Source: Candidatus Omnitrophota bacterium (GTDB taxonomy: Bacteria > Omnitrophota > Gorgyraeia > Zapsychrales > JANLHA01). From it: DNA of 64,000 nt. The notes beneath the pieces were generated by a model. It ran no database searches. It saw nothing but the letters and a program-made list of their open reading frames with translations, and was not told the DNA's origin. The DNA lies in assembly GCA_020632555.1 (NCBI GenBank), contig JACKFI010000001.1, positions 133,152 through 197,151 on the forward strand. Direction: 5' to 3'. Below, one piece after another: positions 25,326-39,230 of this stretch. Numbering within the stretch: the first letter of the stretch is position 1; each line of letters begins with the position of its first letter. The translations under genes were made by a program, and so were the position numbers.

Positions 25326-25497
25326 GTGAATTTACGAGCCTGAAAACATCCCTTGATCATTCTTTTCTCATGACTATTAATAGTGGTTTTATTGTCAAAA
25401 GGCGGGATAGAACTATCTTCGATAGGTTCAGGTTATGAAAGGTCTAGCCTGATTCCCAACCTGTTTAATAACAATATGTTGCGTGATGGTCAAAAAA

Positions 25498-25515
25498 ATG
25501 TGCCAGATTTGTGCC
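25498..25515 (-). promoter_or_regulatory. Repeated 18-bp motif copy 1 (minus strand reads GGCACAAATCTGGCACAT; sigma54-like -24/-12 spacing), ~173 bp upstream of the PAS-LuxR gene
   Basis: Identical core at 29995-30012 and 35935-35952. The motif extends to ~37 bp of similarity with copy 2. The GG and GC dinucleotides are 12 nt apart as in TGGCAC-N5-TTGC. Confidence 0.4.
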
Positions 25516-25556
25516 TATCCTAAAGAGCTACTTTTTTTGATGATAAGCCGACCTGA

Positions 25557-26690
25557 TTAAGTGTCCTTCAATGCGTAACTTGTGCTGCGCCCACCCGCGG
25601 TTTCTTTTACTAAAATACCCTTTTCAACAAGATCGAGAATATCGCGCAACGCCGTGTCCTGTGAACACTGGGTGATCTTCGCCCATTTAGAAGAAGTGAG
25701 CTTGCCTTCAAAACCATCAAACAACTTATTGATGATCATCTTCTGCCTCTCGTTAAGGGATTGGGCAGGATGAGATTCCCAAAAACGCGCTTTCTTAAAT
25801 ACACCCGACAAAGTATTTTCAGTTGCATCCAACGCCCGACCCAAACAGCTCAGGAACCACACAAGCCATGGCGTAATATCAATGCCGTCTTTTGTGGCAC
25901 GGTTACTTTTCTGTGTTTTTTCAAGAATATCATAATAGGCATTCCGTTCCTGCCGGATCTGATTCGACATGCTGTAAAAACGCTCCCGGCTGCCGTCGGC
26001 ACGTGCCAGTTGCATATCGGCAATAGCCCGGGCAATTCTTCCGTTACCATCATCAAAAGGATGAAGTGTCACAAACCACAAATGCCCAATACCAGCTTTG
26101 AGCACAGGATCTAAATCCTTTGTGAGCGAAATCGAAGTGTTAAACCATTTCAGAAATTCCTTCATTTCACTTTTAAGACGGTTGGCCTGCGGTGCTTTAT
26201 AATGAACCTTCTCCCGGCCGATAGGACCAGACACAACTCTCATGGGACCATGCTTATCGTCGCGCCAATCAGCCACTGTAATTTTATGCATTCCGCTTCT
26301 ACCGGTTGGGAATAAACTGGCATGCCAGCCAAACATTCGATCCTGCGTAAGGGGCTTGTCAAATTTCTGTGTGGCATCGAGCATCATTTCCACCACTCCA
26401 TCCACATGACGATCAGAAGGCACAAGTCCACCGATGTCCATGCCCAGCCTGCGTGCAATGGATGACCGCACTTTGGCAGGGTCAAGAATCTCACCTTCAA
26501 TTTCACTACTTTTTAAAACATCAAGGGTGAGAGTCTGCAGGATTGCCTCGGAACGCAAAGAAAAACCCAATGCTTCCATTCTTCCAATCAGTCGCCCTTG
26601 GCGATTGCGGACAGTCCCCAAGATAGACGCGACCTTTTCGTGATCCCATGTCAATTTAGGCCAAATGGTTAATTCATGAATGTATTTCAT
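25557..26690 (-). CDS. fic: Fic-family protein (AMPylase/phosphocholine-transferase-type, Fic/DOC)
   Basis: Canonical Fic motif HPFDDGNGRIARA. C-terminal winged-helix-like segment. Confidence 0.88.
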   Translation of the reverse strand: MKYIHELTIWPKLTWDHEKVASILGTVRNRQGRLIGRMEALGFSLRSEAILQTLTLDVLKSSEIEGEILDPAKVRSSIARRLGMDIGGLVPSDRHVDGVVEMMLDATQKFDKPLTQDRMFGWHASLFPTGRSGMHKITVADWRDDKHGPMRVVSGPIGREKVHYKAPQANRLKSEMKEFLKWFNTSISLTKDLDPVLKAGIGHLWFVTLHPFDDGNGRIARAIADMQLARADGSRERFYSMSNQIRQERNAYYDILEKTQKSNRATKDGIDITPWLVWFLSCLGRALDATENTLSGVFKKARFWESHPAQSLNERQKMIINKLFDGFEGKLTSSKWAKITQCSQDTALRDILDLVEKGILVKETAGGRSTSYALKDT

Positions 26691-26720
26691 GGCAAATTCC
26701 TGCGGTGAATAGTCTCATTA

Positions 26721-26765
26721 TTCTACGCATACTATGCGGAGAATATACCATGTTTTCTCCGCATA
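26721..26765. promoter_or_regulatory. Three-half-site operator-like element upstream of fic: TTCTACGCATA-c-TATGCGGAGAA-(11 nt)-TTCTCCGCATA
   Basis: 26733-26743 and 26755-26765 are a perfect 11-bp inverted repeat. 26721-26731 is a 10/11 direct copy of the right arm. Located 31-75 bp upstream of the fic ATG. Confidence 0.5.
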
Positions 26766-26877
26766 CACAAGAGAGATTTAAATCTATATTGCTCCCTACT
26801 AAAAGAAAGCGTCATTGGATATAACGGCTATGTCCAATCATATCCAATTATTGAATCTTTCCATGAGATTTGAAACG

Positions 26878-26895
26878 ATGTGCCGGATTCCTGCC
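26878..26895 (-). promoter_or_regulatory. Degenerate 4th copy of the repeated 18-bp motif (ATGTGCCGGATTCCTGCC, 15/18), ~190 bp upstream of fic, fused to hairpin CCTGCC-TACC-GGCAGG
   Basis: Read directly from the sequence. Same orientation as the other copies. The hairpin core CCTGCCTACCGGCAGGCA recurs at 38564-38581. Confidence 0.3.
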
Positions 26896-26918
26896 TACCG
26901 GCAGGCAGGTGTGCCAAG

Positions 26919-27866
26919 TTATAATCGATCTGAATATTGTGAGATTGTACTTAAAATTTCATCAAACGATATTTGCCCCTGATAATACAATGTTGCAGTT
27001 TTTAGGCACTCCTTCTTAAATTGATCTCTTATCTTCGTATCTTTCAGCAAAAAAGCCTCCTGCTTTGCAATAGGAAACTTTTGATCTGCGACGGGAAATC
27101 TCTTCTTCTTATGCTCGTTGTATTCTGAAGTCCCGATAAACTTCTGAACCGTATCGTTTTGCAAAAGGCAAGCAACATCGTAATAATGCCGGATAAAATT
27201 AGCAGGCATCTTTCCGGACTCTTGCAGTTTCCGAAACTTTGTTGCGATTGTTTGCAATTTCTCAACAAACGTATAACCCAGATGATAGCACAAAACACCA
27301 CCAGCTCTATTATCCTTAACCTTGAGTCCATTCTGCAATGCAAAATCAAGCGCCCAAGAGCTAATATCCATCGGGCTGTTGGGCGTCACCTCATCAAACC
27401 CAACTTCGAGCAATACACCCTCTTTTATGCCGCCGGCAACAGAGAAAGCACTTTTGTAAAAAAGCCGTATTCCACCGCTAAAGAATTTTTCATTATCAAA
27501 TTCCGTGTCACGAATAATTCTTTGTATCCCATCAATATTAATTTTCTTCGCCAACCAGTCATAGTATTTCTTACGGCTTGCACAATGATCTGGTTTTATA
27601 TGGTTTGGACCTGTCTTGACTTCCATGCCGGCAGGCGGTTCGATACGAATATCAATGTCCTCAGAAAATCGATGAATAATGCCATACCCTTTTGAGAGCG
27701 ACGTACCTCCTTTGAGCTCGAAGGTAAATCCCCCTTGTTGCAAACCATATAAAACATGCATGATCCAATAATCTTTTTCAACCAGACTACGCTCTATCTT
27801 TTTTTCATGCTCTACAGCTCGCAAGAGTTCTTTAAATTCAGCGTGGTTATGTAAATAATCAGACAT
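26919..27866 (-). CDS. AbiEii/AbiGii-family nucleotidyltransferase toxin (type IV TA / abortive infection)
   Basis: 315 aa, DUF1814-type nucleotidyltransferase (…GGTSLSKGYGIIHRFSEDIDI…). Overlaps the upstream partner by 8 nt. Confidence 0.8.
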   Translation of the reverse strand: MSDYLHNHAEFKELLRAVEHEKKIERSLVEKDYWIMHVLYGLQQGGFTFELKGGTSLSKGYGIIHRFSEDIDIRIEPPAGMEVKTGPNHIKPDHCASRKKYYDWLAKKINIDGIQRIIRDTEFDNEKFFSGGIRLFYKSAFSVAGGIKEGVLLEVGFDEVTPNSPMDISSWALDFALQNGLKVKDNRAGGVLCYHLGYTFVEKLQTIATKFRKLQESGKMPANFIRHYYDVACLLQNDTVQKFIGTSEYNEHKKKRFPVADQKFPIAKQEAFLLKDTKIRDQFKKECLKTATLYYQGQISFDEILSTISQYSDRL

Positions 27867-28452
27867 GTGCTAAGTTTCCCTCTAACATCCATTGATTAAA
27901 TAAAGTTTTTGTTCTTTCTCCTGCATAAACATTGACCGCGCGCTTCATCTGAGATTCTGGTTCTTTCAGCACTTTTTCCTTAACACTTCGCAAAACACTT
28001 TCCCGATCTTCCGCTAACTCATTTAAATTGTTCAGTAAATCAACCAGTAGAAATTCTTCGGACAATTCTCTGGGGAATTTATGCTTTAATCGAAAATCAA
28101 ACTCCTTTCCACCAAGAACGAATTGACCATGCCGTTTATGATTATAAACAAAGCGCGTATTGTACAACTGCGTAGTTCCCACTCCTAAAGAATTGTAAAG
28201 GTTAGGCGAGGTTAAAAGAAAATCATCGCTTTTTAAGAAGGCCCGTACCAATTTTTCGTCTTCCGGTGGCACAGAGCCAAACGAGGCTTTTGCAGGATAA
28301 TAGTACAATCCCTGTGACATTTTTTGCAAGGTCCCCTCATCAACCAGTTGCTTTAAATGCCGATCAACCGCGGTTGACCATTGCTCCAGATCAACCCTGC
28401 GATAAACCTGTCCCGGTTTTAAATGCCTTTTAAGTTCGCTAAGCGCGTCCAC
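27859..28452 (-). CDS. AbiEi-family antitoxin / transcriptional regulator
   Basis: 197 aa. N-terminal wHTH-like region. Position and size are typical of AbiEi partners of AbiEii. Confidence 0.65.
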   Translation of the reverse strand: MDALSELKRHLKPGQVYRRVDLEQWSTAVDRHLKQLVDEGTLQKMSQGLYYYPAKASFGSVPPEDEKLVRAFLKSDDFLLTSPNLYNSLGVGTTQLYNTRFVYNHKRHGQFVLGGKEFDFRLKHKFPRELSEEFLLVDLLNNLNELAEDRESVLRSVKEKVLKEPESQMKRAVNVYAGERTKTLFNQWMLEGNLAHV

Positions 28453-28568
28453 GTCTTCTGCCTCCTACTTACCTCAAGTATAAAGAGTTTTCTCTAAGAA
28501 TGCAACAATATTAATTTAAAATTCATGCAAATAAAGTGGAAGGACGCACCCAAGATGCTGATATAAAT

Positions 28569-29918
28569 CTAATTGTGATGATTAGCCATCATCCAATCAA
28601 GCACCCCTTTAACACGACGCCAGACAGTAGCCATCTCATGGGCATAATACCGAGCCTCATCCTCTCCGCCCATAGATAAATAATCAGGAATCGCCTTCAA
28701 ACGGAAACCTTTGACAAGATAATTAGGAATAAATTTATTTGTTTTAAAAGCGCGCGCCATCATTTCCCTTGATTGCAACGAATCACCTTCTTTAATAAAC
28801 CACACCAACGCCCTCGTGTAGCACCATGGCGCGGAGCAATCATTCGCATACGGCCCATCCTCCATGAATTGTTCAAGTTCCGCAAATTTCGATCTCTTTG
28901 CCAGATAGCCTGCAAGAACATAGCGCATTCCCTGATTGTCATTCTCATTCAAACACAGCATATCGCGACACACCTCAATCGCTTCGGCATGCTTACCAAG
29001 CTCCCATAAAATTTCCTGAAGTCCAGCCAAAGCGCGCATATACGGCCTTGATTCCAGCAAAGCCCAAAATTGTCCGGCATTCTCTATAAAAAATTTTTGC
29101 CCTAATGCTTCTTTGCCAACCCTAACCCCTTGTAAAAAGTAGGTTGCGGCTTCGTCAAGATACTCTGCTGAATCACCTAAAACAACGTAGGCATCCGTGC
29201 AATTCGGATCAAGATTTAAAGCTTTTTGAGCCAAACCAACACGCTCATCAGAATCAGCCCGCTCCCATGCTTCATAAATCAACTCTTGAGCGATACGTGC
29301 AGGCGACGCATCTGCGAGCTCAGAGGCGGCTTCACCCAATTCTCTTCTTAAGTAAGTCTTCAAATCTTCCTCTTTTGGAATACCCCAAAGAATATTTCTA
29401 AGATCTGGTGGGACCTTGTAACCGTAAAGTGCCGAAAACGTCTCGATCGGAAACCCGTATTTCAGCGCTCCCATGGGCATGCCATTCAATTGAGCGGCTA
29501 CGACGGCCGCAGGATCCTCGTCCTTCTTAGCTTTACTCAGCCACCAGCGGGAATTTAAGACCATCTGGTTCATGGAGGCAAGCACACTGCGATCATTGGC
29601 TTTATCGACGACAATCTCGTCACAGCCTTGCAAAACTTTCTGCATCATTTCACTTGGACAATGCGTATGAAACATAGCACGCGAAAGCCCTTTGTAAAAA
29701 AGTTCACGAAGGTTTTTGAGATCCTTTTTCTTCACTCCCGCGACAAGGAAAGAAAACAGCGTCGATCGATGAGTAAAAAGCAGCTGCTTCTTGTGCTCAT
29801 GATAAAATAAATTCACGAACCATTCTGAAACAGATGGACTATCAGTGTTCAAAGATAAAGACTGAGGCTTGATACCGCTAAACAATAAAAACTTTTGTGT
29901 CCCACGTAAAAGAATCAT
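28569..29918 (-). CDS. Hypothetical protein with C-terminal TPR-like helical repeats
   Basis: 449 aa. No catalytic motif recognised. Preceded at -77 by motif copy 2. Confidence 0.4.
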   Translation of the reverse strand: MILLRGTQKFLLFSGIKPQSLSLNTDSPSVSEWFVNLFYHEHKKQLLFTHRSTLFSFLVAGVKKKDLKNLRELFYKGLSRAMFHTHCPSEMMQKVLQGCDEIVVDKANDRSVLASMNQMVLNSRWWLSKAKKDEDPAAVVAAQLNGMPMGALKYGFPIETFSALYGYKVPPDLRNILWGIPKEEDLKTYLRRELGEAASELADASPARIAQELIYEAWERADSDERVGLAQKALNLDPNCTDAYVVLGDSAEYLDEAATYFLQGVRVGKEALGQKFFIENAGQFWALLESRPYMRALAGLQEILWELGKHAEAIEVCRDMLCLNENDNQGMRYVLAGYLAKRSKFAELEQFMEDGPYANDCSAPWCYTRALVWFIKEGDSLQSREMMARAFKTNKFIPNYLVKGFRLKAIPDYLSMGGEDEARYYAHEMATVWRRVKGVLDWMMANHHN

Positions 29919-29994
29919 TTTTTAATAACCTAACGTTGTTAAATCACCTACAAGCGCCCTCGTTTTGTCATACACTGCGTAATGGTCAATAAAA

Positions 29995-30012
29995 ATGTGC
30001 CAGATTTGTGCC
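29995..30012 (-). promoter_or_regulatory. Repeated 18-bp motif copy 2 (GGCACAAATCTGGCACAT on the minus strand), 77 bp upstream of the 449-aa TPR protein gene
   Basis: 37-bp stretch 29975-30012 matches 25479-25515 with 2 mismatches. Confidence 0.4.
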
Positions 30013-30017
30013 ACATG

Positions 30018-30443
30018 CTATATGAGTTTTTCCATTTTTTCTATAGCAGCATAGTAAATACTCAAAAACTTATCTTTTATTGTAAAAAGCTCGTCCATCA
30101 TTTTTTCAGAATGGGACTTATTCTCATATTCAAAAGGATAAAACCGAATACCCTTTTTATAAAATCCGCCTTCATAATTAATTTGAAAAAAATAATCTCG
30201 GTCAACAAGAGATCGATGCTTACTCAAGTTACAAAAACTCCTCACGTAGCCAAACTCATCTGAGTCAATCCATTCTCCTATAGCATTCTCTAAATCCGGA
30301 GCGATACCTTTCAATTGTTTACTCACTTTATAAATTGTAACTTTGCTTCGGGGCAGCGTAGAAGATAGGATTACCATATTGATTACCTGTGCGCAAATAT
30401 CAGGAGCCAAAGAGAATATTTCCAAACGTGCCATATTCAGCAC
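30018..30443 (-). CDS. Hypothetical protein
   Basis: 141 aa, no recognisable domain. Alternative Met start 3 codons in (MARLEIF). Confidence 0.35.
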   Translation of the reverse strand: MLNMARLEIFSLAPDICAQVINMVILSSTLPRSKVTIYKVSKQLKGIAPDLENAIGEWIDSDEFGYVRSFCNLSKHRSLVDRDYFFQINYEGGFYKKGIRFYPFEYENKSHSEKMMDELFTIKDKFLSIYYAAIEKMEKLI

Positions 30444-30546
30444 AAACCTGCCGAAGGACGAGCAAGTCCGCCAGAAGCAAATGAACCCGACACTCCTGGA
30501 AATGTTCTCTTTTACTCTCTTTTGAGTTTCTTTAGAATTTTATTTT

Positions 30547-31560
30547 TCATATTGAAACGTGGCATTGCCCATTGCCAAGATCAACAAAATTAATTTTAAC
30601 ATCCATGAACTTCTCAATAATCTCGGCATTGGTAAGGCTGTGCAGCGTCAGGGCCGTAGTTTTAAATTCTCCACCTTTGGCCAAAGCAAACGGGATCAAA
30701 AGCTGATCAGCCAAATACGTCCCCACCGGAGCATCGATTTGTAAATATTTCTTTACTTGTTCAATGGCTTCATGCGCTACTGCTTCCGCGCTTTTACGCA
30801 ATTCTCCGAAACCCACAAACATTTCCCTGATATTTTCACTATCAACCTCAACCGTAAAAATATTTCCCGGACCTTGAGAATCCATGGCTTGAAAAATCTC
30901 ACTTTGATCATCTTCCAGAGAAAAATGTTTTTTAGCGACCGCGATTTCTCTGACAGCAACATTGCCAGGGATTTGGGCAAAGAGTGATCTTGCCTTTATG
31001 CCTTTAAGTTTGCCGCGCTCTAACAAAAATATGGGTTTTAATTTCTTTATAGGCACAATTTTAGCTTCGATCTTTCCGCCGCCGGCCGGGTAAAAACCGT
31101 GGCGATGCAAAGTCACTTCTAAATCCACACCCATTTGTTTGAGAATCGGCGCAAAAACTATTTTTAAAAAATCCACCGGGGGTGCGAAAGGATTATGCGT
31201 TCCTCCTTCGATCACAATTATGGATGGTGAGTCCGCGATCATCAAAGCCGGTAAAATGGTTTGCAAAACAAGAGTCGCGCTACCCGCCGTCCCAACTGAA
31301 AAATGGTATTCCCCTGCGGTGACTTCTCCCGGATAGAAAGTCAGCTTTTGCGAGCCGATAACATTCCCATCGACCTTTGCATCTCCAATCTTCGTAGCTG
31401 CTTCGACAGCCGTTAAATGCTGGCGTAAAAGCCCCGGCTTACTACGCTTAGCGCGGATATTCTCAATCGTAAACGGCTCGCCCGTTACTAAGGACAACCC
31501 GAGAGCTGTCCTTAGTATTTGGCCCCCGCCTTCACCGATTGAACCGTCGATTTTAATCAT
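30547..31560 (-). CDS. rtcA: RNA 3'-terminal phosphate cyclase
   Basis: 337 aa. N-terminus IDGSIGEGGGQILRTALGLSLVTGEPFTIENIRAKRSKPGL is diagnostic of RtcA. Confidence 0.88.
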   Translation of the reverse strand: MIKIDGSIGEGGGQILRTALGLSLVTGEPFTIENIRAKRSKPGLLRQHLTAVEAATKIGDAKVDGNVIGSQKLTFYPGEVTAGEYHFSVGTAGSATLVLQTILPALMIADSPSIIVIEGGTHNPFAPPVDFLKIVFAPILKQMGVDLEVTLHRHGFYPAGGGKIEAKIVPIKKLKPIFLLERGKLKGIKARSLFAQIPGNVAVREIAVAKKHFSLEDDQSEIFQAMDSQGPGNIFTVEVDSENIREMFVGFGELRKSAEAVAHEAIEQVKKYLQIDAPVGTYLADQLLIPFALAKGGEFKTTALTLHSLTNAEIIEKFMDVKINFVDLGNGQCHVSI

Positions 31561-32306
31561 TTGACCTCTTTGGTTCTCACCGGAACGACTTGACCCGATA
31601 CTCCTAAGACAATCGTACTTCCCGGTGATTGTAAAGCTCGCAATTGCAATAACGCAGGATTGTCTTCCAACACTTTAGAAACATTGGCCAAATTGCGCAA
31701 AGACGCGGTTTCTCCGCGGGCACGTTCCAATGCCGCCAACCCTTCTTTTTGCGCCTCAACAACCTTAGCAAAGATTTTCTTTAATTCACCCGGAAACATA
31801 ACGTCCTTAACGCCGATGAGCGTAATTTTTAAACCGATTTCCTTCGCTTTGGCAACCGTCGCTTCCATCAACTTTTGATTAATCGTTGCTCGCTGTGCCA
31901 AAACCTCATCGATCGCTAAAGAGCCAATGATGTCACGAACTGCCAATTGTACCACCGCGTATAAAGCCTCGGTGTAACTAGCGATCTTATTAACGGCGAT
32001 GTTGGCATCTTCGATCTCATATTGCGCCGTAATGCTGACCTTTAAGGACACATTGTCCGAACTTAAGACTTCCTGCCCCGGGATCGTGATGACTCGAGGA
32101 CGAACATCGATCTTAACGATGATCGTATTCTGAGAAAACTTAAAATAACGACCCGGTTCCAAAATTCCGACAAATTTTCCCTTGCGATATTTTAAACCCT
32201 TCTCATATTCAAGAATAGTGACAAAATATTTTGCACTAAAAACCGCAATGACGACCCAACCGATAAAGCCGAGCACCGCCATGCTTACTAATGTTGATAA
32301 TGTCAT
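31557..32306 (-). CDS. SPFH/band-7 (stomatin/slipin-like) membrane protein inserted between rtcB and rtcA
   Basis: N-terminal TM followed by an SPFH domain and a coiled-coil-like tail (…QKEGLAALERARGETAS…). Overlaps rtcA by 4 nt. Confidence 0.8.
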   Translation of the reverse strand: MTLSTLVSMAVLGFIGWVVIAVFSAKYFVTILEYEKGLKYRKGKFVGILEPGRYFKFSQNTIIVKIDVRPRVITIPGQEVLSSDNVSLKVSITAQYEIEDANIAVNKIASYTEALYAVVQLAVRDIIGSLAIDEVLAQRATINQKLMEATVAKAKEIGLKITLIGVKDVMFPGELKKIFAKVVEAQKEGLAALERARGETASLRNLANVSKVLEDNPALLQLRALQSPGSTIVLGVSGQVVPVRTKEVK

Positions 32307-32602
32307 TTCTTTCTCCTTTTGTTTTTAAAAGTTCTGTCTTAAAAAAATTGTAGAATCGCAGTGGAGGTTGTTGACCTGCAAGACGGCTTTTCTACGAGCA
32401 ACTTTCTTAAGACAGAACGTGGGGATTTGAACCCCTCGGATTACTCCTTGACCAGGGCGAGCGTTTATCTGCAAAATGATATGGCCGATGCCATGTCATC
32501 GCACTGGATTCGCTCGCATATTTTTTTATCCCAATTTTTGCTAAAGGATTTTGCTTTTGGTAAATTGGGATTACGCAAATTTTTTCTATCGAAAATCTGC
32601 CT

Positions 32603-34120
32603 TTAAGCTGCTCCTTTTAAACTTTTATCTTCATCTTTAATAACAAACCGCGCTTTTAACTTTGCCACAGGACTCGCCAGCCCGGCGCTCTCGATTGATC
32701 TCAAAACTTCTTTGAAATCTTTATAAGCCGCAGGGGCTTCATCCAAAGGATATTGCCGGCAATTAGACAGAATGTCATTGTCTTTGAAACTCTGGTCGAC
32801 TTCCTGTTGGACCAAAGTTCTCATCGCCGCCTTCCGTCCCAACGCACGACCAGCGCCGTGATTAACGCTGTAACAACTTTTTTCTGCGCCCGGATCAGCA
32901 ACCATAACAACCGAGCCATCTTTAGGATTACCCGGAAGCAAAATCGGATGTCCGGTATCAGCAAACAAAGTGTCCTTTAATGCAAAGTGTCCCGCCGGGA
33001 AAGCCCGCGTCGCCCCTTTGCGGTGGACCCAGACTTTTTGATTGTCCACCACTTCCTGCCGGGCAATGTTATGGCTGATAAAATAAACCAACTGCCCTTT
33101 TGTTCCAGGAACCACCTCTTGAAACGCTTCTAAAACCAAAGCATTGATTAACAGATGATTGATCGTCGCAAAATTAGCGCCCAAGGCCATGTCATTCAAG
33201 TAGGCATCTGCTTCGGGCGTTCCCAAGGGCGCATACACCAACTCCTTATCCTCGCCCGGCAATGGAATATCCCAAACCGAGAATTTATTTTGCAAGGTCT
33301 TGAATTGATGCTGCGCTAAATGATAACCAAAACCGCGCGAACCGCAATGCGAGAGAAAGGCTACCTTGTTATCTTGAAGCCCAAAGACTTCGGCCACCTT
33401 CTTGGCGCGCTCATCATTCTCGATTTCAACAACTTCGCATTCTCCAAAGTGATTTCCACCACCATAAGAACCCAATTGCGAAATCTTTTTCTCAAAATTA
33501 TCGAACAATCCCGTATCGATCAAAAATTGCAATCTTTGACCTAAGGCATCGGCTGTTCCATCATGCCCGACGTGAAAAGCATCTTCGCAACGCAAAGCCC
33601 AATCCACAGGAATGCCTAATTGCTCGCAGACCGAAGCCGAAGCACCCTGGATAGCGACTTGTTTACCCAGGATTTCATTGACCCGTCTCGCCTTCTTAAC
33701 TGAACGCTGCCCCTGCCCCGCACCCGTCGGGGTTCTTTCAAGGATCGCGTTAATTAAAGCCCGACGGGTGCTTTGATCAATGACGGCATTTGCCGGCAAA
33801 TCCATTTGCAATAAACTCATCGAACACTTAATGTCCACACCAACCGGACCAGGATATATATGAGTAGGTGACACCAGAACACAACCAACCGGTGCGCCGT
33901 ACCCGCAGTGAGCATCTGGGTTCAATACTAAATCGGTAACCCCGGGAGCGCCGCGAGAATTTAAAGCTTGTTGAATACAAAGGTCATCAAAAGTTTTTCT
34001 GATCGCCTCGGTTCCAATCACCGTGATTGGTTTTCCTTCACTATTATGCATAGGAAGAAAACCCGTTGCTTCCCCGGTGGCATGAATTCTTGAAGTTGAT
34101 TCGTTCGTTTGTTCTGACAT
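32603..34120 (-). CDS. rtcB: RNA-splicing ligase RtcB (3'-phosphate/5'-OH RNA ligase)
   Basis: 505 aa. Conserved RtcB metal-binding/GTP motifs (…YGGGNHFGECEV…, …HGAGR…). Confidence 0.88.
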   Translation of the reverse strand: MSEQTNESTSRIHATGEATGFLPMHNSEGKPITVIGTEAIRKTFDDLCIQQALNSRGAPGVTDLVLNPDAHCGYGAPVGCVLVSPTHIYPGPVGVDIKCSMSLLQMDLPANAVIDQSTRRALINAILERTPTGAGQGQRSVKKARRVNEILGKQVAIQGASASVCEQLGIPVDWALRCEDAFHVGHDGTADALGQRLQFLIDTGLFDNFEKKISQLGSYGGGNHFGECEVVEIENDERAKKVAEVFGLQDNKVAFLSHCGSRGFGYHLAQHQFKTLQNKFSVWDIPLPGEDKELVYAPLGTPEADAYLNDMALGANFATINHLLINALVLEAFQEVVPGTKGQLVYFISHNIARQEVVDNQKVWVHRKGATRAFPAGHFALKDTLFADTGHPILLPGNPKDGSVVMVADPGAEKSCYSVNHGAGRALGRKAAMRTLVQQEVDQSFKDNDILSNCRQYPLDEAPAAYKDFKEVLRSIESAGLASPVAKLKARFVIKDEDKSLKGAA

Positions 34121-34243
34121 TTGTTTTTCCCTTATATTGCCCCTTTCCTTTATCGTTGCTTAAAGCATACCCTATCCAAAGCCAAATGTCAAATTTATTT
34201 TTATTTTCTTGTATAAATGTTTATCCTGTGATATATTTATACC

Positions 34244-35842
34244 ATGAATACAAAAATTGCTATTGGGCTACTTGGGACAACCCTCGATCAAGGGAAAGAT
34301 GAAAATCGCTGGAACAAGTGGCGTCCGACCATCTCCCTTTTTCAGCACGAAGACCTCTTGATCCATCGTTTTGACTTGCTATACGAAAAAAAATTTCAAG
34401 ATCTTGCCGAGCAAGTTATTTCTGACATCAAATCCATCTCCCCTGAAACCAGAGTTGTGCCCCACATTATTGAAGTGAAAGACGCGTGGGATTTTGAGAA
34501 TATGTACAGCGTCCTTTTTGACTTTGCCCGCAATTATCCTTTTAATATAGAGAAAGAAGAATATCTCATCCACATCACCACCGGATCGCACGTAGCGCAA
34601 ATTTGTGAATTTCTTTTAACTGAAAGCCGATACTTCCCAGCTAAACTCATCCAGACCTCCCCTTCCAAAACCGAAGGCTTTAAAGGCGAATACCGCATCA
34701 TTGATCTTGACCTTTCTAAGTACGACAACATCGTCAAGCGATTCCGTAAAGAACAAAGAGAAAATTTATCATTTCTTAAATCCGGGATAGCGACTCGCAA
34801 TAGTAAATATAATCGGCTCATTGAACAAATCGAACGCGCGACGATCAACTCTAATGCCCCGCTTCTTCTCACCGGCCCGACCGGTGCCGGAAAATCACAT
34901 CTTGCCCGACAAATTTTTGAACTCAAAAAGATTCACAACCAAATCAAAGGCCAATTTATCGAAGTCAACTGCGCGACTCTGCGCGGAGAAATGTCGGCCT
35001 CCACCCTTTTTGGGCATGTCAAAGGAGCATTTAACTGCGCCATCAAAGACCGAATGGGATTATTACGCGAAGCCAATGAAGGGGTTTTATTTCTCGACGA
35101 GATTGGAGAATTAGGGATCGATGAGCAAGCCATGCTTCTTAAAGCATTGGAAGAACAAAAATTCTTGCCCATCGGCAGCGACGAGGAAGTTGAAAGTAAA
35201 TTTCAGTTAATTGCCGGGACGAATTTAGACCTTGGCATTGAAGTTGATAAAGGCAATTTTCGCACCGACCTCTACTCCCGAATCAATCTTTGGACATTCT
35301 CATTGCCTTCTCTTAAGGACCGTCCTGAAGATATCGATGCCAACATTGAATTTGAATTAGAAAAGTTTTCACAAACACACAATATCAACGCCACCATCAA
35401 TAAAGAAGCCAAAGATGCCTATTTGAAATTTGCGACATCAGAGAAAGCATTATGGAAAGCGAACTTCCGTGACTTGAATGCCTCCATCATTCGCATGACC
35501 ACATTAGCCGACGGCGGGAGAATCAATATTGAACTTGTGCAGGAAGAAATTGACCGGTTAAATAAACTTTGGAAGAGAAGCGAAGATACTCAAGAAGCGG
35601 AGATACTCGAACGTTTACTAACTCAAGAACAACTGCAAAAGCTAGACCGGATTGAAAAAATCCAATTGATTGAAGTTATAAAGATTTGCCGCGAATCACG
35701 CAACCTGTCTGAAGCCGGCCGCATTTTATACAATGCTTCCCGCACACTCAAATCAAGCACCAATGACGCCGATCGACTTAAAAAACTTCTCGCCCGCCAC
35801 GATCTATCCTGGGACCAAATTAAAAACGCTTCCGTACTATGA
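34244..35842 (+). CDS. rtcR: RtcR: CARF-domain sigma54-type enhancer-binding transcriptional regulator
   Basis: 532 aa. N-terminal CARF-like domain (~180 aa), AAA+ sigma54-interaction domain (Walker A GPTGAGKS, Walker B VLFLDEIGEL), C-terminal Fis-type HTH. The GAFTGA loop reads GAFNCA. Confidence 0.85.
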   Translation: MNTKIAIGLLGTTLDQGKDENRWNKWRPTISLFQHEDLLIHRFDLLYEKKFQDLAEQVISDIKSISPETRVVPHIIEVKDAWDFENMYSVLFDFARNYPFNIEKEEYLIHITTGSHVAQICEFLLTESRYFPAKLIQTSPSKTEGFKGEYRIIDLDLSKYDNIVKRFRKEQRENLSFLKSGIATRNSKYNRLIEQIERATINSNAPLLLTGPTGAGKSHLARQIFELKKIHNQIKGQFIEVNCATLRGEMSASTLFGHVKGAFNCAIKDRMGLLREANEGVLFLDEIGELGIDEQAMLLKALEEQKFLPIGSDEEVESKFQLIAGTNLDLGIEVDKGNFRTDLYSRINLWTFSLPSLKDRPEDIDANIEFELEKFSQTHNINATINKEAKDAYLKFATSEKALWKANFRDLNASIIRMTTLADGGRINIELVQEEIDRLNKLWKRSEDTQEAEILERLLTQEQLQKLDRIEKIQLIEVIKICRESRNLSEAGRILYNASRTLKSSTNDADRLKKLLARHDLSWDQIKNASVL

Positions 35843-35934
35843 TCAATCCCTAATTTAATCATCCGTGATAGTTTATTTGAGAATTTATTGTAACCCCAAG
35901 AAGTGGCGTCAGGGGGGATTTTTGGTGCCAAAAC

Positions 35935-35952
35935 ATGTGCCAGATTTGTGCC
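35935..35952 (-). promoter_or_regulatory. Repeated 18-bp motif copy 3 (GGCACAAATCTGGCACAT on the minus strand), between rtcR 3' end and the HEPN gene
   Basis: Core identical to copies 1 and 2. The flank also carries a TGGTGCC variant. No obvious downstream minus-strand gene (would be antisense to rtcR). Confidence 0.3.
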
Positions 35953-35976: not shown

Positions 35977-36384
35977 TCACTTTCCCATCATCTCTCTGAC
36001 CCATTGATAAACCCGGGTAGTCACCTTGACCATTTCATCAGCATCGGCTCGATTAACACTACGGCATTCATACTGGATCACATTCTTTCGGGCAATGATT
36101 TTGCGTAATTGCTTGGCTTTTTCAGCAGCGCCATCAATCGGCAATTTTGAAACCAGCTCACAGACATCCAAGTGATCTTGGGAAATTGACCGAACACCTT
36201 TTTCATTCACACAAATCGCATCCGCCGAAGAAATCGCACATTGCAATGCCAACGTTGCCGCGGCGTTCCAATTCTCAGCATGAAAAGCAATGAGCATTTG
36301 ATCGTAATTGTCCGATGCCTTTTTCAGATATTCACTAGCGGCAGATTTGCTCTCTTCTCTCACCTTCATTTCACGCGCTGTCAC
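35977..36384 (-). CDS. HEPN-domain protein (toxin of a HEPN/MNT pair)
   Basis: 135 aa, all-helical. R-x5-H-like motif (VRSISQDH). Directly downstream (1-nt gap) of the MNT gene. Confidence 0.6.
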   Translation of the reverse strand: MTAREMKVREESKSAASEYLKKASDNYDQMLIAFHAENWNAAATLALQCAISSADAICVNEKGVRSISQDHLDVCELVSKLPIDGAAEKAKQLRKIIARKNVIQYECRSVNRADADEMVKVTTRVYQWVREMMGK

Positions 36385-36385
36385 A

Positions 36386-37015
36386 TCACACCTCCAAAGG
36401 TTCTTTTCCGTATAAAACTGAATAGGATTTCATTAATGTTGATATCGGCGGAAGATTCTTTTTAAGACGTTCACGAAATTCAGCCGCTGACTTTACATAA
36501 AAATCCAAATGAATACCAAAATATGACTTAAACCGATCCGCAATGCTTGAATTAAAAACCTCCGCAACCTGCTTCGTATGGCTTGCCTTATCGACAACAA
36601 CGGCCACATCAACATCGCTTTTTTTATTTGCTGTACCTTGCTGAACACTTCCATAAAGGATCAAAGAAACAATATCCGTCTTGATCCCGCCTTTCTTTAT
36701 CTCCTCCAAGAGCAGATCGCGGATCTCTCCCTTATAATTACTCTCCGCCTCGAACATCGGGCGAATAATTTTTTGAACGATGCGGTCCTCTTCATTCAAA
36801 GAATAGATATGCTGTTTTCCGATGACTTCGACATTAAGAATATTGTGTGCCTGAAGATTCTTTAATGATTCGTGGGTAGCAGGCACAGAAAAACCAGACA
36901 ATTTAGCAATCTCGCGGCCCGTGGCTCTTAATCCTTTACGGATAGTCAGAACACGCAGGATGGCCACCGCTGACTGCGTCCCAACAATTTCACTGATTTG
37001 GAAAGGAGAATCCAT
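36386..37015 (-). CDS. Nucleotidyltransferase (MNT-type antitoxin) with N-terminal winged-helix DNA-binding domain
   Basis: N-terminal wHTH (…GREIAKLSGFSVPATHESLKNLQAHNIL…). C-terminal Pol-beta NTase motif (LYGSVQQGTANKKSDVDVAVVVD). Confidence 0.7.
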   Translation of the reverse strand: MDSPFQISEIVGTQSAVAILRVLTIRKGLRATGREIAKLSGFSVPATHESLKNLQAHNILNVEVIGKQHIYSLNEEDRIVQKIIRPMFEAESNYKGEIRDLLLEEIKKGGIKTDIVSLILYGSVQQGTANKKSDVDVAVVVDKASHTKQVAEVFNSSIADRFKSYFGIHLDFYVKSAAEFRERLKKNLPPISTLMKSYSVLYGKEPLEV

Positions 37016-37057: not shown

Positions 37058-37149
37058 TATAACATTGTTTCCAGAACTGTCAAATTTATACTGCTCCACG
37101 GTGATATACCGTATTGTGTGTAAATTAACTGTCATCCCCGAAATTTTTT

Positions 37150-38545
37150 ATCGGGGAACCATTTAAAAGTAGTAAAAAAAGGCGTATCTTTCTGTTTGGA
37201 AATGTTTAACCGGGTTGACCCATGTCAGCCCAGAACAGAAAGGATACGCCCATGTACCAAACATTTGATACTTTAAAACATCGCGGAGCCGGGTCAAGGA
37301 TTTCATTAATTATACCCAACCGAAAGATTTTTGGATCGATATTAATATGCATCTTAGAAAACTAACCAAAAGTTTTATTGAAGAAACTCTCGACGAAGAA
37401 ATGACCCAATATCAACAACGAGAAAAACATCAGCGGTTAAAGAAAATGATCGATTACCGAAACGGACATTATCAACGCAACCTCGATACGACCATCGGCC
37501 CTCTTGATAATATTGCCGTTCCGCGTTCACGAAGCGGACTATTTAAACCTACGGTTTTTAAGCGTTACCAAAGACGCCAAGAAGCTGTTAACACCGTCAT
37601 CTGCAATGCCTTCCTGCGCGGCATATCCACCCGTGAAGTCGCTGGCGCTTTAAAACCAATCCTTGACACCAACATCTCCGCTTCCGCCGTCTCACGAATA
37701 ACAAAATCTTTAAATGCCCAAGTTAAAGCATTCCATCAACGTCAACTGCTCGACGAATATCAGTTTTTATTCCTAGACGGTATTGCTATCTCAGTCAAAG
37801 GAGCGCTTAAAGCCAAGAAAATTCTTGTCCTAACTGCTTATGGCATTACGATCTTCGGTAAAAAAGAGCTCATCGCCTTTAGAATCTCTAACAGCGAGTC
37901 AAATCAAGCCTGCGAAGGATTTTTAAATGATCTATTTAAACGCGGCCTGCAAGGCAAAAACCTTAAATTGATTATCACCGACGGGTCCAAAGGCTTTATT
38001 AACGCCGTCGACCTCGTTTACCCTCACGTCAAACATCAGCGCTGCTGGGTTCATAAACTTCGTAATTGCACTAAACATCTTAAGAAATGCGATATTGATG
38101 CATTTAAAAATGATGCCCGCAAGATTTACAATGCCTCGACTCATCGAGATGCTGTCGCGGCTTTTAAGAGTTTACGCCAACATTGGGTCAAAGATTATCC
38201 GCAAGTTGTCAAACTCATCGAACAGGATTTAGATAGTCTTTTGGCTTTTTTAGAAATTCCAATCAAGGAACAATACCGCGAATTTATCCGTCGTCGAATT
38301 CGTACAACCAACATCATCGAGCGTTCATTCCGGGAAATCAGACGCCGCACCAGACCCATGGGATGTTTTGCAAATATTGATAGCGTCAGCAGGATTATTT
38401 ATGCGATATTTAATCGCTTAAACACCAAATGGCAGGAGAAACCTTTAACCCAATTTACACAATTTATTTGACATTACCGCAAATTGAAAGGTGCGGTTAA
38501 AACAAGAAAACCCCGTCTCTCCTCGACGGAAAACAGGGTTTTATA
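37150..38545 (+). mobile_element. IS256-family insertion sequence (boundaries approximate; terminal inverted repeats not resolved)
   Basis: The transposase CDS has ~190 bp of upstream and ~70 bp of downstream non-coding flank. A 16-bp-stem long hairpin (GGCGTATCTTTCTGTT…AACAGAAAGGATACGCC) lies at 37196-37257. Confidence 0.4.
37347..38471 (+). CDS. tnp: IS256-family (Mutator-type) transposase
   Basis: 374 aa. Typical IS256 transposase N-terminus (…IEETLDEEMTQYQQREKHQRLKKMIDYRNGHYQRNLDT…) and DDE core. Confidence 0.85.
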   Translation: MHLRKLTKSFIEETLDEEMTQYQQREKHQRLKKMIDYRNGHYQRNLDTTIGPLDNIAVPRSRSGLFKPTVFKRYQRRQEAVNTVICNAFLRGISTREVAGALKPILDTNISASAVSRITKSLNAQVKAFHQRQLLDEYQFLFLDGIAISVKGALKAKKILVLTAYGITIFGKKELIAFRISNSESNQACEGFLNDLFKRGLQGKNLKLIITDGSKGFINAVDLVYPHVKHQRCWVHKLRNCTKHLKKCDIDAFKNDARKIYNASTHRDAVAAFKSLRQHWVKDYPQVVKLIEQDLDSLLAFLEIPIKEQYREFIRRRIRTTNIIERSFREIRRRTRPMGCFANIDSVSRIIYAIFNRLNTKWQEKPLTQFTQFI

Positions 38546-38548
38546 TTG

Positions 38549-38562
38549 GTTGCGGGGACAGG
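38549..38562 (-). repeat. 14-nt direct copy (TTGCGGGGACAGGA) of the tRNA-Met 3' end, att-like
   Basis: Exact match to 38731-38744 (tRNA acceptor/T-stem 3' strand), ~170 bp downstream of the tRNA 3' end. Confidence 0.45.
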
Positions 38563-38695
38563 ACCTGCCTACCGGCAGGCAAGTTTGAATGGTTTCGCGG
38601 CTTCGCTTACGCTCAACCATTTCCTCGCCTAACGGCTCGGTCACCTGCGCTCGCTTTCGCTCGCTGCACGTCCATTCACCCATCCCACTAATAAA

Positions 38696-38730: not shown

Positions 38731-38804
<74 letters not shown>

Positions 38805-38834
38805 GCTATTCTTAGTAATAATATCTTGAGGTAG

Positions 38835-39050
38835 CCGCGGCACTTCCTCGGGTATTAAGCGTCTGTCGGCCTCGCCACGGTGGGCTCGGCACTCCTTCGC
38901 ACTTTACGTGCTCAGTCGCCCGCTTTGGTACTAAATACATCTTAATATAACGGCGGCACTTCCTCGGGCATTAAGCGTCTGTCGGCCTCGCCACGGTGGG
39001 CTCGGCACTCCTTCGCACTTTACGTGCTCAGTCGCCCGCTTTGGTACTAA
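38835..39050. repeat. 2 x 100-bp near-identical GC-rich tandem repeat (16-bp spacer) between tRNA-Met and the ftsB-eno operon
   Basis: 38835-38934 and 38951-39050 differ at 2 positions. Unit: CGGCACTTCCTCGGG(T/C)ATTAAGCGTCTGTCGGCCTCGCCACGGTGGGCTCGGCACTCCTTCGCACTTTACGTGCTCAGTCGCCCGCTTTGGTACTAA. Confidence 0.6.
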
Positions 39051-39230
39051 TGCTATCTTTTGATACTATAAATATCTTTAAATCTTTATGCAGATCCCCA
39101 ATAAAATCCTTCGGGGATGACAACTAATTAGGATTGCCGCGCCCCTTCGGGGCCCGCAATGACAAATCTTTTCGATTTGGTTCTCGTCGAAAAGGGACTC
39201 ACTGCGTTCGCAATGACAACACTTCTAATT

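Follow-up and report, generated by a model that had tools for sequence, protein, structure and literature searches.

An 18-bp motif that recurs in a 64-kb window of a metagenome contig (the window being the whole stretch of DNA analysed here) is probably a pair of arm-type integrase sites in the arms of att sites, and its copies would mark the joints of integrase-less element remnants lying beside a tRNA-fMet gene. Given the association of the motif with tRNA genes and integrases in other genomes, its fixed spacing to a tRNA core, its alignment with a repeat of phage ES18 and its occurrence as GTNLAH codons in integrase tails, the copies look like arm-type sites of tRNA-fMet-targeting elements. 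The 13-kb stretch from 25.4 to 38.8 kb would then be an array of integrative-element remnants at tRNA-fMet, and the annotation of a putative sigma-54 regulon, proposed in a sequence-only reading of this DNA, would be false and give way to a structural one.

A motif search of the window recovered ATGTGCCAGATTTGTGCC exactly three times, always on the plus strand and at the positions and in the shared orientation claimed for it earlier (copies 1 to 3, Table 1); in shuffled windows the mean number of 18-mer matches was 0.06, and four were never reached. The 18-mer is a direct repeat, GGCACA-N5-GGCACA, in which GGCACA recurs in tandem with an 11-bp period. What had been described as a 15/18 variant at 26878 does match with three mismatches (26878-26895, plus strand), but the parse was wrong, the site being in reality an 18-mer split by a 20-bp palindrome (26890-26909) and reading GGCACA[CCTGCCTGCCGGTAGGCAGG]AATCcGGCACAT on the minus strand. 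An identical split site, likewise placed after the orthologous abiEii, was found in L013 (L numbers denote loci or contigs from other genomes that were compared with the window), and a second copy of the palindrome (38564-38583) precedes the tRNA-fMet 3′-end remnant. Copies 1 and 2 are alike over a longer stretch, at about 35 of 37 bases. On the minus strand a gene (fic, abiEii, ORF141 or HEPN) ends shortly before each copy, its stop codon lying 3-41 nt away. Three other identities for the motif were tried and ruled out: transposon ends (Tn7- or Mu-like, starting TGT), the copies being always direct and never inverted repeats; a tRNA fragment or any Rfam family; and a conserved small ORF, the three frames through the copies yielding unrelated peptides. 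A literature search for the motif string returned no occurrence of the 18-mer.

Table 1. Features between 25.4 and 38.8 kb of the window, with positions counted from its first base.
Feature	Position	Strand	Remarks
18-mer copy 1 (GGCACAAATCTGGCACAT)	25498..25515	-	putative paired arm-type site of a P-arm (type A) att remnant
Arm Z, 58 nt, from copy 1 to the tRNA core	25440..25497	-	87-92% identical to arms in L048, L035, L046 and L019
Core remnant TTCATAACCTGAA, tRNA-fMet anticodon loop and stem	25427..25439	-	13 nt of the core left
Fic module: DUF4172-Fic gene (25557-26690) with its own upstream region	25557..26877	-	between the split 18-mer and copy 1
Copy 4, split 18-mer	26878..26915	-	3 nt past the abiEii stop codon
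Module DUF6933/TPR, AbiEi-like, AbiEii	26919..29918	-	
Copy 2 (29995-30012) with about 22 nt of arm Z	29973..30012	-	truncated type A site, 5 nt past the ORF141 stop codon
rtc module	30018..35842		ORF141, rtcA, SPFH protein and rtcB on the minus strand; rtcR on the plus strand
Copy 3 (35935-35952) with third GGCAC repeat and flank Y	35905..35952	-	P′-arm (type B) att half; abuts the HEPN 3′ end directly
HEPN-MNT toxin-antitoxin module	35977..37015	-	
IS256-family (Transposase_mut) transposase gene	37347..38471	+	between the P′-arm remnant and the HEPN-MNT module
Element-borne tRNA-fMet 3′-end remnant (15 nt + CCA) and terminator	38504..38563 (entry to 38583)	-	
Intact tRNA-Met(CAT) gene	38731..38804	-	C1:A72 mismatch, initiator type

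Comparison with the related contigs placed the copies within two recurring att arrangements. In type A, as read on the minus strand at copy 1, the 18-mer is followed by an arm of 58 nt and then by the core sequence of which a remnant is left in the window; in L048, L035, L046, L019, L044 and L014 the sequence runs on into up to 45 nt of the tRNA-fMet 3′ half, from the anticodon loop exactly. The tRNA-fMet fragments begin at CTCATAA in that loop, with the exact start seen in at least nine sites. The gap between 18-mer and core is 58-61 nt at nine type A sites, and it is kept in L043, L049 and L014 even though their arms are unlike Z and unlike each other. In type B (L014, L036, L041 and L044), the tRNA-fMet 3′ half is followed by a terminator, about 50 nt, and then the 18-mer with a third GGCAC repeat and flank Y, the same flank that copy 3 bears. 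The two halves are contiguous in L014, with their 18-mers 228 nt apart, and also in L028, with 18-mers at 1984 and 2201. In contigs that share 79-87% identity in their genes, the identity of the non-coding att segment is 87-92%, and the 18-mer is exact. The motif is found in both arms, at a fixed spacing from a core that copies the 3′ part of the target tRNA and begins at a canonical crossover position, as arm-type sites should be. A metagenome scan with a 19-mer from arm Z gave 13 matches, none of them beside an 18-mer and all of them due to chance, and hence no further elements of the family.

At its proximal end the array is bounded by the intact tRNA-fMet gene, the integration target; similarity to related att sites stops at the 13-nt core remnant, which is therefore the distal boundary, and four 18-mer joints lie between the two. 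A second att remnant was looked for at 17.6 kb, where homology to the flank of L046 stops, and none was found there. The element-borne tRNA remnant is 88% identical to L044 over 38504-38555. The abiE part of the window shows 79-87% DNA identity to L013 and L035, where an 18-mer terminates it too, and the rtc module shows 82-85% DNA identity to the L019+L044 and L048 contigs, both of which have an 18-mer att site at the rtcA end, with another at the rtcR end in L044. A search of the 64-kb window for an integrase or integrase fragment (tblastn with eight integrases, and hmmsearch with an integrase HMM) gave noise only. Att-derived repeats flank modules beside an intact tRNA gene without a recombinase of their own, which is the arrangement of a tandem tRNA-linked island or cis-mobilizable element. 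The Rtc RNA-repair operon and the AbiE, HEPN-MNT and Fic modules would be att-flanked travelling cargo without integrase; they recur at 79-87% DNA identity in MAGs that carry the labels of different phyla.

In 596 Gb of sequence, with each species represented by one genome, the exact 18-mer occurred in 50 loci, against about 17 expected by chance. About 33 of the 50 adjoin tRNA genes, tRNA fragments or tyrosine integrases, and the other 17, which lie within coding sequence or have no tRNA, equal the chance expectation in number. A strict T-arm hairpin occurs within 350 bp at 23 of 53 sites (about 3 expected), with a distance of 141-143 nt from 18-mer to T-arm recurring in six proteobacterial loci. 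Full tRNA genes (Met, Lys, Glu, Ser, Arg) stand 45-85 nt from the 18-mer in L003, L010, L016, L024, L026, L029 and L050, and a tyrosine integrase adjoins it in about 10 loci; elsewhere it lies in either orientation between tRNA and integrase genes, or within integrase 3′ ends. In L003, L023 and L026 it codes for GTNLAH in the C-terminal tail of the integrase (GTNLAP in a variant in L041). The integrases of L003, L024 and L041 have N-terminal extensions of about 55-70 residues; the L003 integrase, whose tail contains the 18-mer, and the ES18 integrase share 39% identity over the full length, including a homologous N-terminal domain. A scan of viral contigs with the 18-mer gave no matches. When the sites were aligned, the 18-mer and the ES18 P-arm repeat GTCCCATTTTTGTCTCAC occupied identical columns. 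The ES18 integrase tail repeat GTCCCAAATATGTCCCAC lined up with repeats that L034 and L038 have in their other arm and that resemble GGCACA. The motif is equivalent in position to the repeats of a P22-type attP. From the ES18 sequence, we take the GTCCCA repeats of P22 and ES18 to be Int arm-type sites.

In the favoured model, the 18-mer is a tandem of arm-type sites to which a heterobivalent tyrosine integrase, akin to that of phage P22, would bind with its N-terminal domain, and it is placed at the outer edge of both arms of elements that would target the anticodon-loop region of tRNA-fMet. Successive elements may have entered the tRNA-fMet gene at 38.7 kb, each newcomer displacing the earlier ones outward, and their integrase genes would since have been lost. 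The attR/attL junctions, of about 230 bp and made up of a tRNA fragment with an arm and an 18-mer on either side, would mostly have collapsed, presumably by deletion and often between directly repeated 18-mers, and the residue would be four cargo modules with one 18-mer ending each, namely HEPN-MNT, the rtc operon, DUF6933-AbiE and Fic. The sites may still be usable in trans. Several observations count against the arm-site model: the window has no integrase, three junctions are collapsed exactly at the 18-mer (copy 3, the split copy and L019 at 4662), and where the Fic module starts, the sequence after the 18-mer differs from flank Y. Should the model hold, GGCACA-N5-GGCACA with a tRNA-fMet anticodon-loop fragment about 59 nt downstream could serve as a marker for such islands in poorly known lineages.

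The sequence-only reading had taken the copies for sigma-54 promoters of an RtcR-dependent regulon that drives PAS-LuxR, fic and the DUF6933/TPR gene, which we now consider extremely improbable. Its measurements hold: GG and GC are 12 nt apart, with 10 nt separating the two pairs, as in the -24/-12 geometry, and the quoted distances from the motif to the starts of PAS-LuxR, fic and the "TPR" gene (DUF6933) are right. Moreover, copies 2 and 3 have one mismatch to TGGCAC-N5-TTGCW (copy 1 has two), the sigma-54 activator RtcR is encoded within the window, and most cargo genes are co-oriented 3′ of the motif, both in the window and in the L028 array. However, scoring of the window against the sigma-54 consensus at no more than one mismatch gave 3 matches where shuffles gave 2.7, a chance level without enrichment. 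What is conserved alongside the motif is tRNA-fMet fragments and att arms, not any downstream gene, its downstream neighbours being unrelated genes, a tRNA fragment or a convergent gene. Its spacing is fixed relative to the tRNA core and not to start codons; copy 3 has no downstream gene on its own strand and is directed into the end of the convergent rtcR, 92 nt off; and in other genomes the 18-mer forms part of integrase 3′ ends or is directed from the integrase toward a tRNA. Secondary sites, recognised in other loci by their conserved flanks, read GTCACA, GACACA or GCCACA, so that the would-be -12 G is lost while NCACA is kept. The conserved region upstream of rtcB holds TTGACA-17-TATGCT, and its sole conserved GG..GC pair is one base too close, so that even the Rtc operon here would be without a canonical sigma-54 promoter. 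An RpoN-box search for rpoN in the 64-kb window of this metagenome contig found none. GGCAC-type tandem arm repeats can evidently mimic the sigma-54 -24/-12 geometry, and caution is due in annotating them.

The copies had alternatively been read as cassette-boundary recombination sites, and it is true that they stand at module boundaries and are components of att sites, but the most likely place of the crossover is the tRNA core, at a distance of 58-61 nt, rather than the 18-mer. That the 18-mer is itself the crossover site, at which a recombinase moves single modules as in an integron-like cassette array, is distinctly unlikely. A Fic-type module follows abiEii in the window and not in L013 or L035, and follows the RlaP-like gene in L019 and not in L048, its presence or absence being exact at an 18-mer in both contexts; in addition, the HEPN 3′ end is joined straight to Y at copy 3, and L028 arrays single-gene modules in uniform orientation. 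Yet the 18-mer has neither the dyad symmetry of tyrosine- or serine-recombinase core sites nor attC-like inverted repeats, every L028 unit keeps a tRNA-Arg 3′ half between two 18-mers as expected from crossover in the tRNA, and the tRNA fragments of at least nine sites start where such a crossover would place them. The collapse points also vary, with 22 nt of Z retained at copy 2 and Z plus 20 nt of core in L044 at 2960, and the associated integrases fall far short of the integron-integrase cut-offs, with 28-73 bits for TIGR02249 (cut-off 265) and still less for NF011946 (cut-off 435). At the split copy, the exchange must have taken place inside the final 12 nt or less, a span that is short for ordinary homologous recombination and leaves room for a site-specific event at the 18-mer. 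A related possibility, which we regard as unlikely, is that recombination between 18-mers at the module joints, integrase-assisted or by slippage, trims the tRNA core, so that single modules such as the Fic-type are gained, lost or reshuffled there; the tRNA-linked island would then act like an integron-style cassette array without integron integrase or attC. An excisionase (recombination directionality factor) or a regulator encoded by the element is very unlikely to be the ligand of the repeats. Such proteins too bind tandem direct repeats in att arms, with KplE1 as an example (PMC2951348), and the present data fit excisionase and integrase alike; nevertheless, the motif lies in both arms at their outer edges and covaries across them (GTCCCA in both in ES18, GGCACA-like in both in L034 and L038), and no excisionase gene accompanies the window modules. 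We take the putative ligand to be the integrase, rather than an excisionase or other factor. The GTNLAH and GTNLAP tails could also mean that the copies are inert relics of integrase 3′ ends left after integrase deletion. This is highly improbable given that no integrase-like coding sequence adjoins any copy in the window, that genuine sites are mostly non-coding, and that in many independent contexts upstream similarity breaks off precisely where the 18-mer begins on its 5′ side; the 18-mer is invariant between distant lineages at every base, even at synonymous positions, against a divergence of about 15-20% in neighbouring genes, and the motif occurs also upstream of integrase start codons and in the other arm, with in-frame stops just upstream.

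The arm-site architecture favoured here resembles the attP of P22 and ES18 at thrW in that both arms hold short tandem repeats (10-11 bp period) whose distance to a core formed by the tRNA 3′ part is fixed, and in the overlap of one arm with the integrase gene 3′ end. It differs in the repeat (GTCCCA there, GGCACA here) and in the target, here tRNA-fMet crossed at the anticodon loop, and the window elements are without integrase, excisionase or phage genes. Cis-mobilizable elements (CIMEs) are att-flanked islands without an integrase, and the rtc module of L019+L044 is comparable, with 18-mer att sites at both ends and no recombinase gene between them; in the window, the same module is bracketed by copy 3 (P′-arm type) and copy 2 (truncated P-arm), again with no recombinase gene between. 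For these modules, mobilisation in cis by an incoming element is at most putative. With integron arrays the window shares co-oriented modules of one or few genes, each terminated by a conserved site, and the common toxin-antitoxin cargo, but it has no attC inverted repeats, R″/R′ boxes or IntI, and tRNA fragments belong to its sites. At attL of KplE1 (CPS-53), IntS arm-type sites overlap the intS promoter, over which the TorI sites lie too (PMC2951348). The order of tRNA, arm-type sites and integrase start in one direction is repeated in L016 and L024 as tRNA-Ser, 18-mer and integrase, although motif sequence and integrase subfamily differ and the window lacks this KplE1-type order. Tandem decaying integrative elements are also described at tRNA genes in the tycheposon islands of Prochlorococcus (bioRxiv 10.1101/2020.12.28.424599) and in the ssrA islands of Dehalococcoides (PMC3146451). 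They resemble the present array in that new elements keep entering a single tRNA or tmRNA gene and displace older ones outward, in their scattered partial tRNA copies and degenerate elements, and in their adaptive or defensive cargo; lineage and integrase family differ, and here most internal tRNA fragments are gone, the joints being marked by the arm repeats only.

The repeat is real and non-random. Exact plus-strand matches to ATGTGCCAGATTTGTGCC were found at three sites in the window (copies 1 to 3) and a match with three mismatches at a fourth, as compared with 0.06 matches to the 18-mer in shuffled sequence, and the distances from the motif to the PAS-LuxR, fic and DUF6933/TPR genes given in the sequence-only reading were correct on checking. 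The fourth site, described there as a variant, does carry the three mismatches; its actual structure is GGCACA[CCTGCCTGCCGGTAGGCAGG]AATCcGGCACAT, i.e., the same 18-mer split by a 20-bp palindrome. The genes between 24.4 and 37.0 kb are all on the minus strand except rtcR, and the stop codon of the preceding gene lies 3-41 nt before each 18-mer copy, with copy 3 facing the 3' end of the convergent rtcR.

Scanning a single genome of each species recovered 50 loci with the exact 18-mer, which together with the window gave 53 exact sites; chance expectation for an 18-mer is about 17 matches in 596 Gb, both strands. A strict T-arm hairpin was present within 350 bp at 23 of the 53 exact sites (about three expected), with recurring distances of 141-143 nt from the 18-mer. 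Intact tRNA genes (Met, Lys, Glu, Ser, Arg) were located 45-85 nt from the 18-mer at seven loci, and a tyrosine integrase (Pfam Phage_integrase) adjoined it at about ten. Once degenerate tRNA halves and the two kinds of flank (types A and B) were counted, about 33 of the 50 loci were att-associated, and the other 17, nine within unrelated ORFs and eight without nearby tRNA-like sequence, correspond to the number expected by chance.

Types A and B are the two recurring contexts that emerged when the flanks of the 18-mer loci were aligned. Type A, on the gene strand, consists of the 18-mer, a 58-59-nt arm (Z) and the 3' half of tRNA-fMet, beginning exactly at the anticodon loop (CTCATAACCTGAAGG...CCA), an arrangement that corresponds to an attR site (P arm and core). 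Type B has the order tRNA-fMet 3' half, element-borne terminator, about 50 nt (X), 18-mer with a third GGCAC repeat and flank Y, which corresponds to an attL site (core and P' arm). In one locus (L014) types A and B are contiguous, with two 18-mers 228 nt apart.

Features of the window related to the 18-mer and the tRNA-fMet gene
Feature	Position	Strand or type	Remarks
18-mer copy 1	25498	type A	core remaining 13 nt, 25427-25439
18-mer copy 2	29995	type A arm	22 nt of Z retained
18-mer copy 3	35935		order HEPN gene 3' end, 18-mer, Y
Split 18-mer	26878-26915		
Palindrome CCTGCCTRCCGGYAGGCARG, first copy	26890-26909		interrupts 18-mer between GGCACA and AATC
Palindrome, second copy	38564-38583		interrupts tRNA-fMet T-loop remnant between TTCAAA and TCCTG
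tRNA end and terminator remnant	38504-38563	type B	adjoins IS256-family transposase gene
tRNA-Met(CAT), initiator type (C1:A72)	38731-38804	minus	
Two tandem 116-bp repeats	38813-39044		91% identical; directly upstream of tRNA-fMet
35-nt element TGTCATCCCCGAA...TTCGGGGATGACA	37123-37157 and 39095-39129		hairpin-forming
rtc module	30649-35833		
Rtc locus, full extent	30018-35842		
sigma-70-type promoter upstream of rtcB	34164-34192	minus	TTGACA-17-TATGCT
Gene similar to one in L046	17062-17616		

In nine type A sites, three of them (L043, L049 and L014) with arms unlike Z, the 18-mer and the core were 58-61 nt apart, and such a fixed gap would be expected if a protein bound at a set position with respect to the crossover region. 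The motif is itself a tandem repeat (period 11 bp), has a third repeat unit in the P' arm, and marks the outer edge of both arms. Tandem repeats at the outer edges of both att arms are likewise found in the lambda paradigm, a comparison based on what is already established for heterobivalent integrases (see the summary in PMC2951348). In an Erwinia oleae isolate (L006), phage tail genes adjoin a stretch in which a P22-type integrase fragment is accompanied by a thrW tRNA half, an arm and the 18-mer. When this locus and four others were aligned with the annotated attP of phage ES18, the 18-mer occupied the columns of the ES18 P-arm repeat GTCCCATTTTTGTCTCAC, and the ES18 integrase-tail repeat GTCCCAAATATGTCCCAC was matched in two loci (L034, L038) by GGCACA-like repeats on the opposite arm; thus, the repeat type changes in both arms together. 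The GTCCCA repeats of ES18/P22 are what we take to be the mapped P22 Int arm sites. The L003 and ES18 integrases share 39% identity over their whole length, the N-terminal 55 residues included, and identity between contigs is 87-92% for the non-coding type A segment as compared with 79-87% for the genes of those contigs. Together, these data are best explained if the 18-mer is a putative arm-type site, in paired form, for integrases of a P22-related family, and if its copies mark where element remnants lacking an integrase are joined at tRNA-fMet; the earlier suggestion of recombination sites at module boundaries had come close to this.

The 18-mer lies within the 3' end of the integrase gene at L003, L023 and L026, encoding GTNLAH, and L041 has the integrase-tail variant GTNLAP; at L016 and L024 it is non-coding, points the other way and separates tRNA-Ser from the start codon of the integrase. 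In several P22-related integrases (these four tail cases and ES18, L065 1583-1600) the C-terminal tail is encoded by tandem arm repeats, so that the tail peptide varies with the type of DNA site, GGCACA repeats giving GTNLAH and the GTCCCA repeats of ES18 giving VPNMSH. The reading frame is identical in all four GGCACA cases.

A sigma-54 regulon under RtcR, which had been proposed from the minus-strand reading of the motif (GGCACAAATCTGGCACAT), was not supported. Its GG-N10-GC geometry simply follows from the direct repetition of GGCAC, sigma-54 consensus matches in the window were at chance level, the -12 G was lost at secondary sites located via conserved flanks, and the orientation and neighbours of the 18-mer were inconsistent with a promoter. 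Between rtcR and rtcB, the intergenic sequence shows 93% conservation across three loci, and the only GG..GC pair conserved there is spaced one base too tightly for sigma-54. No RpoN-box protein was found in a search confined to the 64-kb window. The near-consensus sigma-70-type promoter upstream of rtcB is conserved in L048 and L044, which is odd for an operon adjoining the sigma-54 activator RtcR.

The array at tRNA-fMet was probably formed by successive integrations at this gene and subsequent loss of the integrase genes, with the attR/attL junctions (about 230 bp) collapsing, often between two direct 18-mers; successive integrations at a tRNA gene have been described for tycheposon islands. 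No integrase or integrase fragment was detectable in the 64-kb window. Some of the collapses are exact at the 18-mer, one being limited to 12 nt or less, as would also be expected if a site-specific event at the 18-mer itself had produced them, an origin that we consider rather improbable.

Comparison with other contigs fits successive integration at tRNA-fMet, given the shared patterns of modules and 18-mers. The rtc module was 82-85% identical in DNA sequence to L019 plus L044 (a MAG labelled Omnitrophota) and L048 (a MAG labelled Planctomycetales), the abiE genes were 79-87% identical to those of L013 and L035, and both modules end at 18-mers in these contigs too. L048 has the order rtcA, RlaP-like gene, 18-mer, Z and tRNA half, past which the sequence is homologous to the region downstream of the window's intact tRNA-fMet. 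L019 has the same order, except that it has gained a Fic-type module with an 18-mer on either side; the L019 Fic protein shares only 32% identity over 93 residues with that of the window, where the Fic module lies between the split 18-mer and copy 1. In L013, abiEii is followed by an identical split 18-mer and Z. At the rtcR end, L044 has the 18-mer, Z, 20 nt of core and a Y-like flank, and the window has the 18-mer directly followed by Y.

The whole Rtc RNA-repair locus (rtcR, rtcB, SPFH gene, rtcA; L019 5465-8000 with L044 1-2763, and L048 2123-7211) is carried as cargo of an att-flanked island without integrase, linked to AbiE, HEPN-MNT and Fic modules. After rtcA comes an RlaP-like nucleotidyltransferase gene in L019 and L048 and an unrelated ORF141 in the window. 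A further window gene is 77% identical to an L046 gene (3122-3668) directly beside a distal att site. It is separated from the window att remnant by 7.8 kb (17.6-25.4 kb) including an HMG-CoA-reductase-like gene and the PAS-LuxR gene, a stretch that may represent another, earlier insertion or reflect a difference between the lineages; an att remnant was looked for at 17.6 kb and not found.

The same layout, uncollapsed or partly collapsed, was seen in a gammaproteobacterial MAG (L028, L025, L037), where each single-gene module precedes a site composed, in order, of a tRNA-Arg 3' half, an arm of 105 nt and the 18-mer; one L028 unit (1984 to 2201) has kept a second, variant 18-mer across the tRNA half. 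L028 800-5975 (JAACFO010000004) has at least four such modules (hydrolase, VKOR-like, membrane hydrolase, histidine phosphatase). Behind every one of them comes a composite site, about 220 nt long, in which a tRNA-Arg(TCG) 3' half is combined with GGCACA repeats, and the array ends at an IS3-family element.

The 20-bp palindrome has only two copies in the window, whose targets have CAAATC in common, and an identical insertion is present in the abiEii-linked 18-mer of L013 (about 1865-1884); this hairpin may be a very small mobile element that prefers certain targets. Sequence related to the 116-bp repeats (gagcacgtaatgtgcgaaggagtgccg) comes after the tRNA fragment in L035. The two 35-nt elements, which enclose the IS256-type transposase gene together with the att remnant, tRNA-fMet and the 116-bp repeats, may be IS ends or a REP-like repeat.
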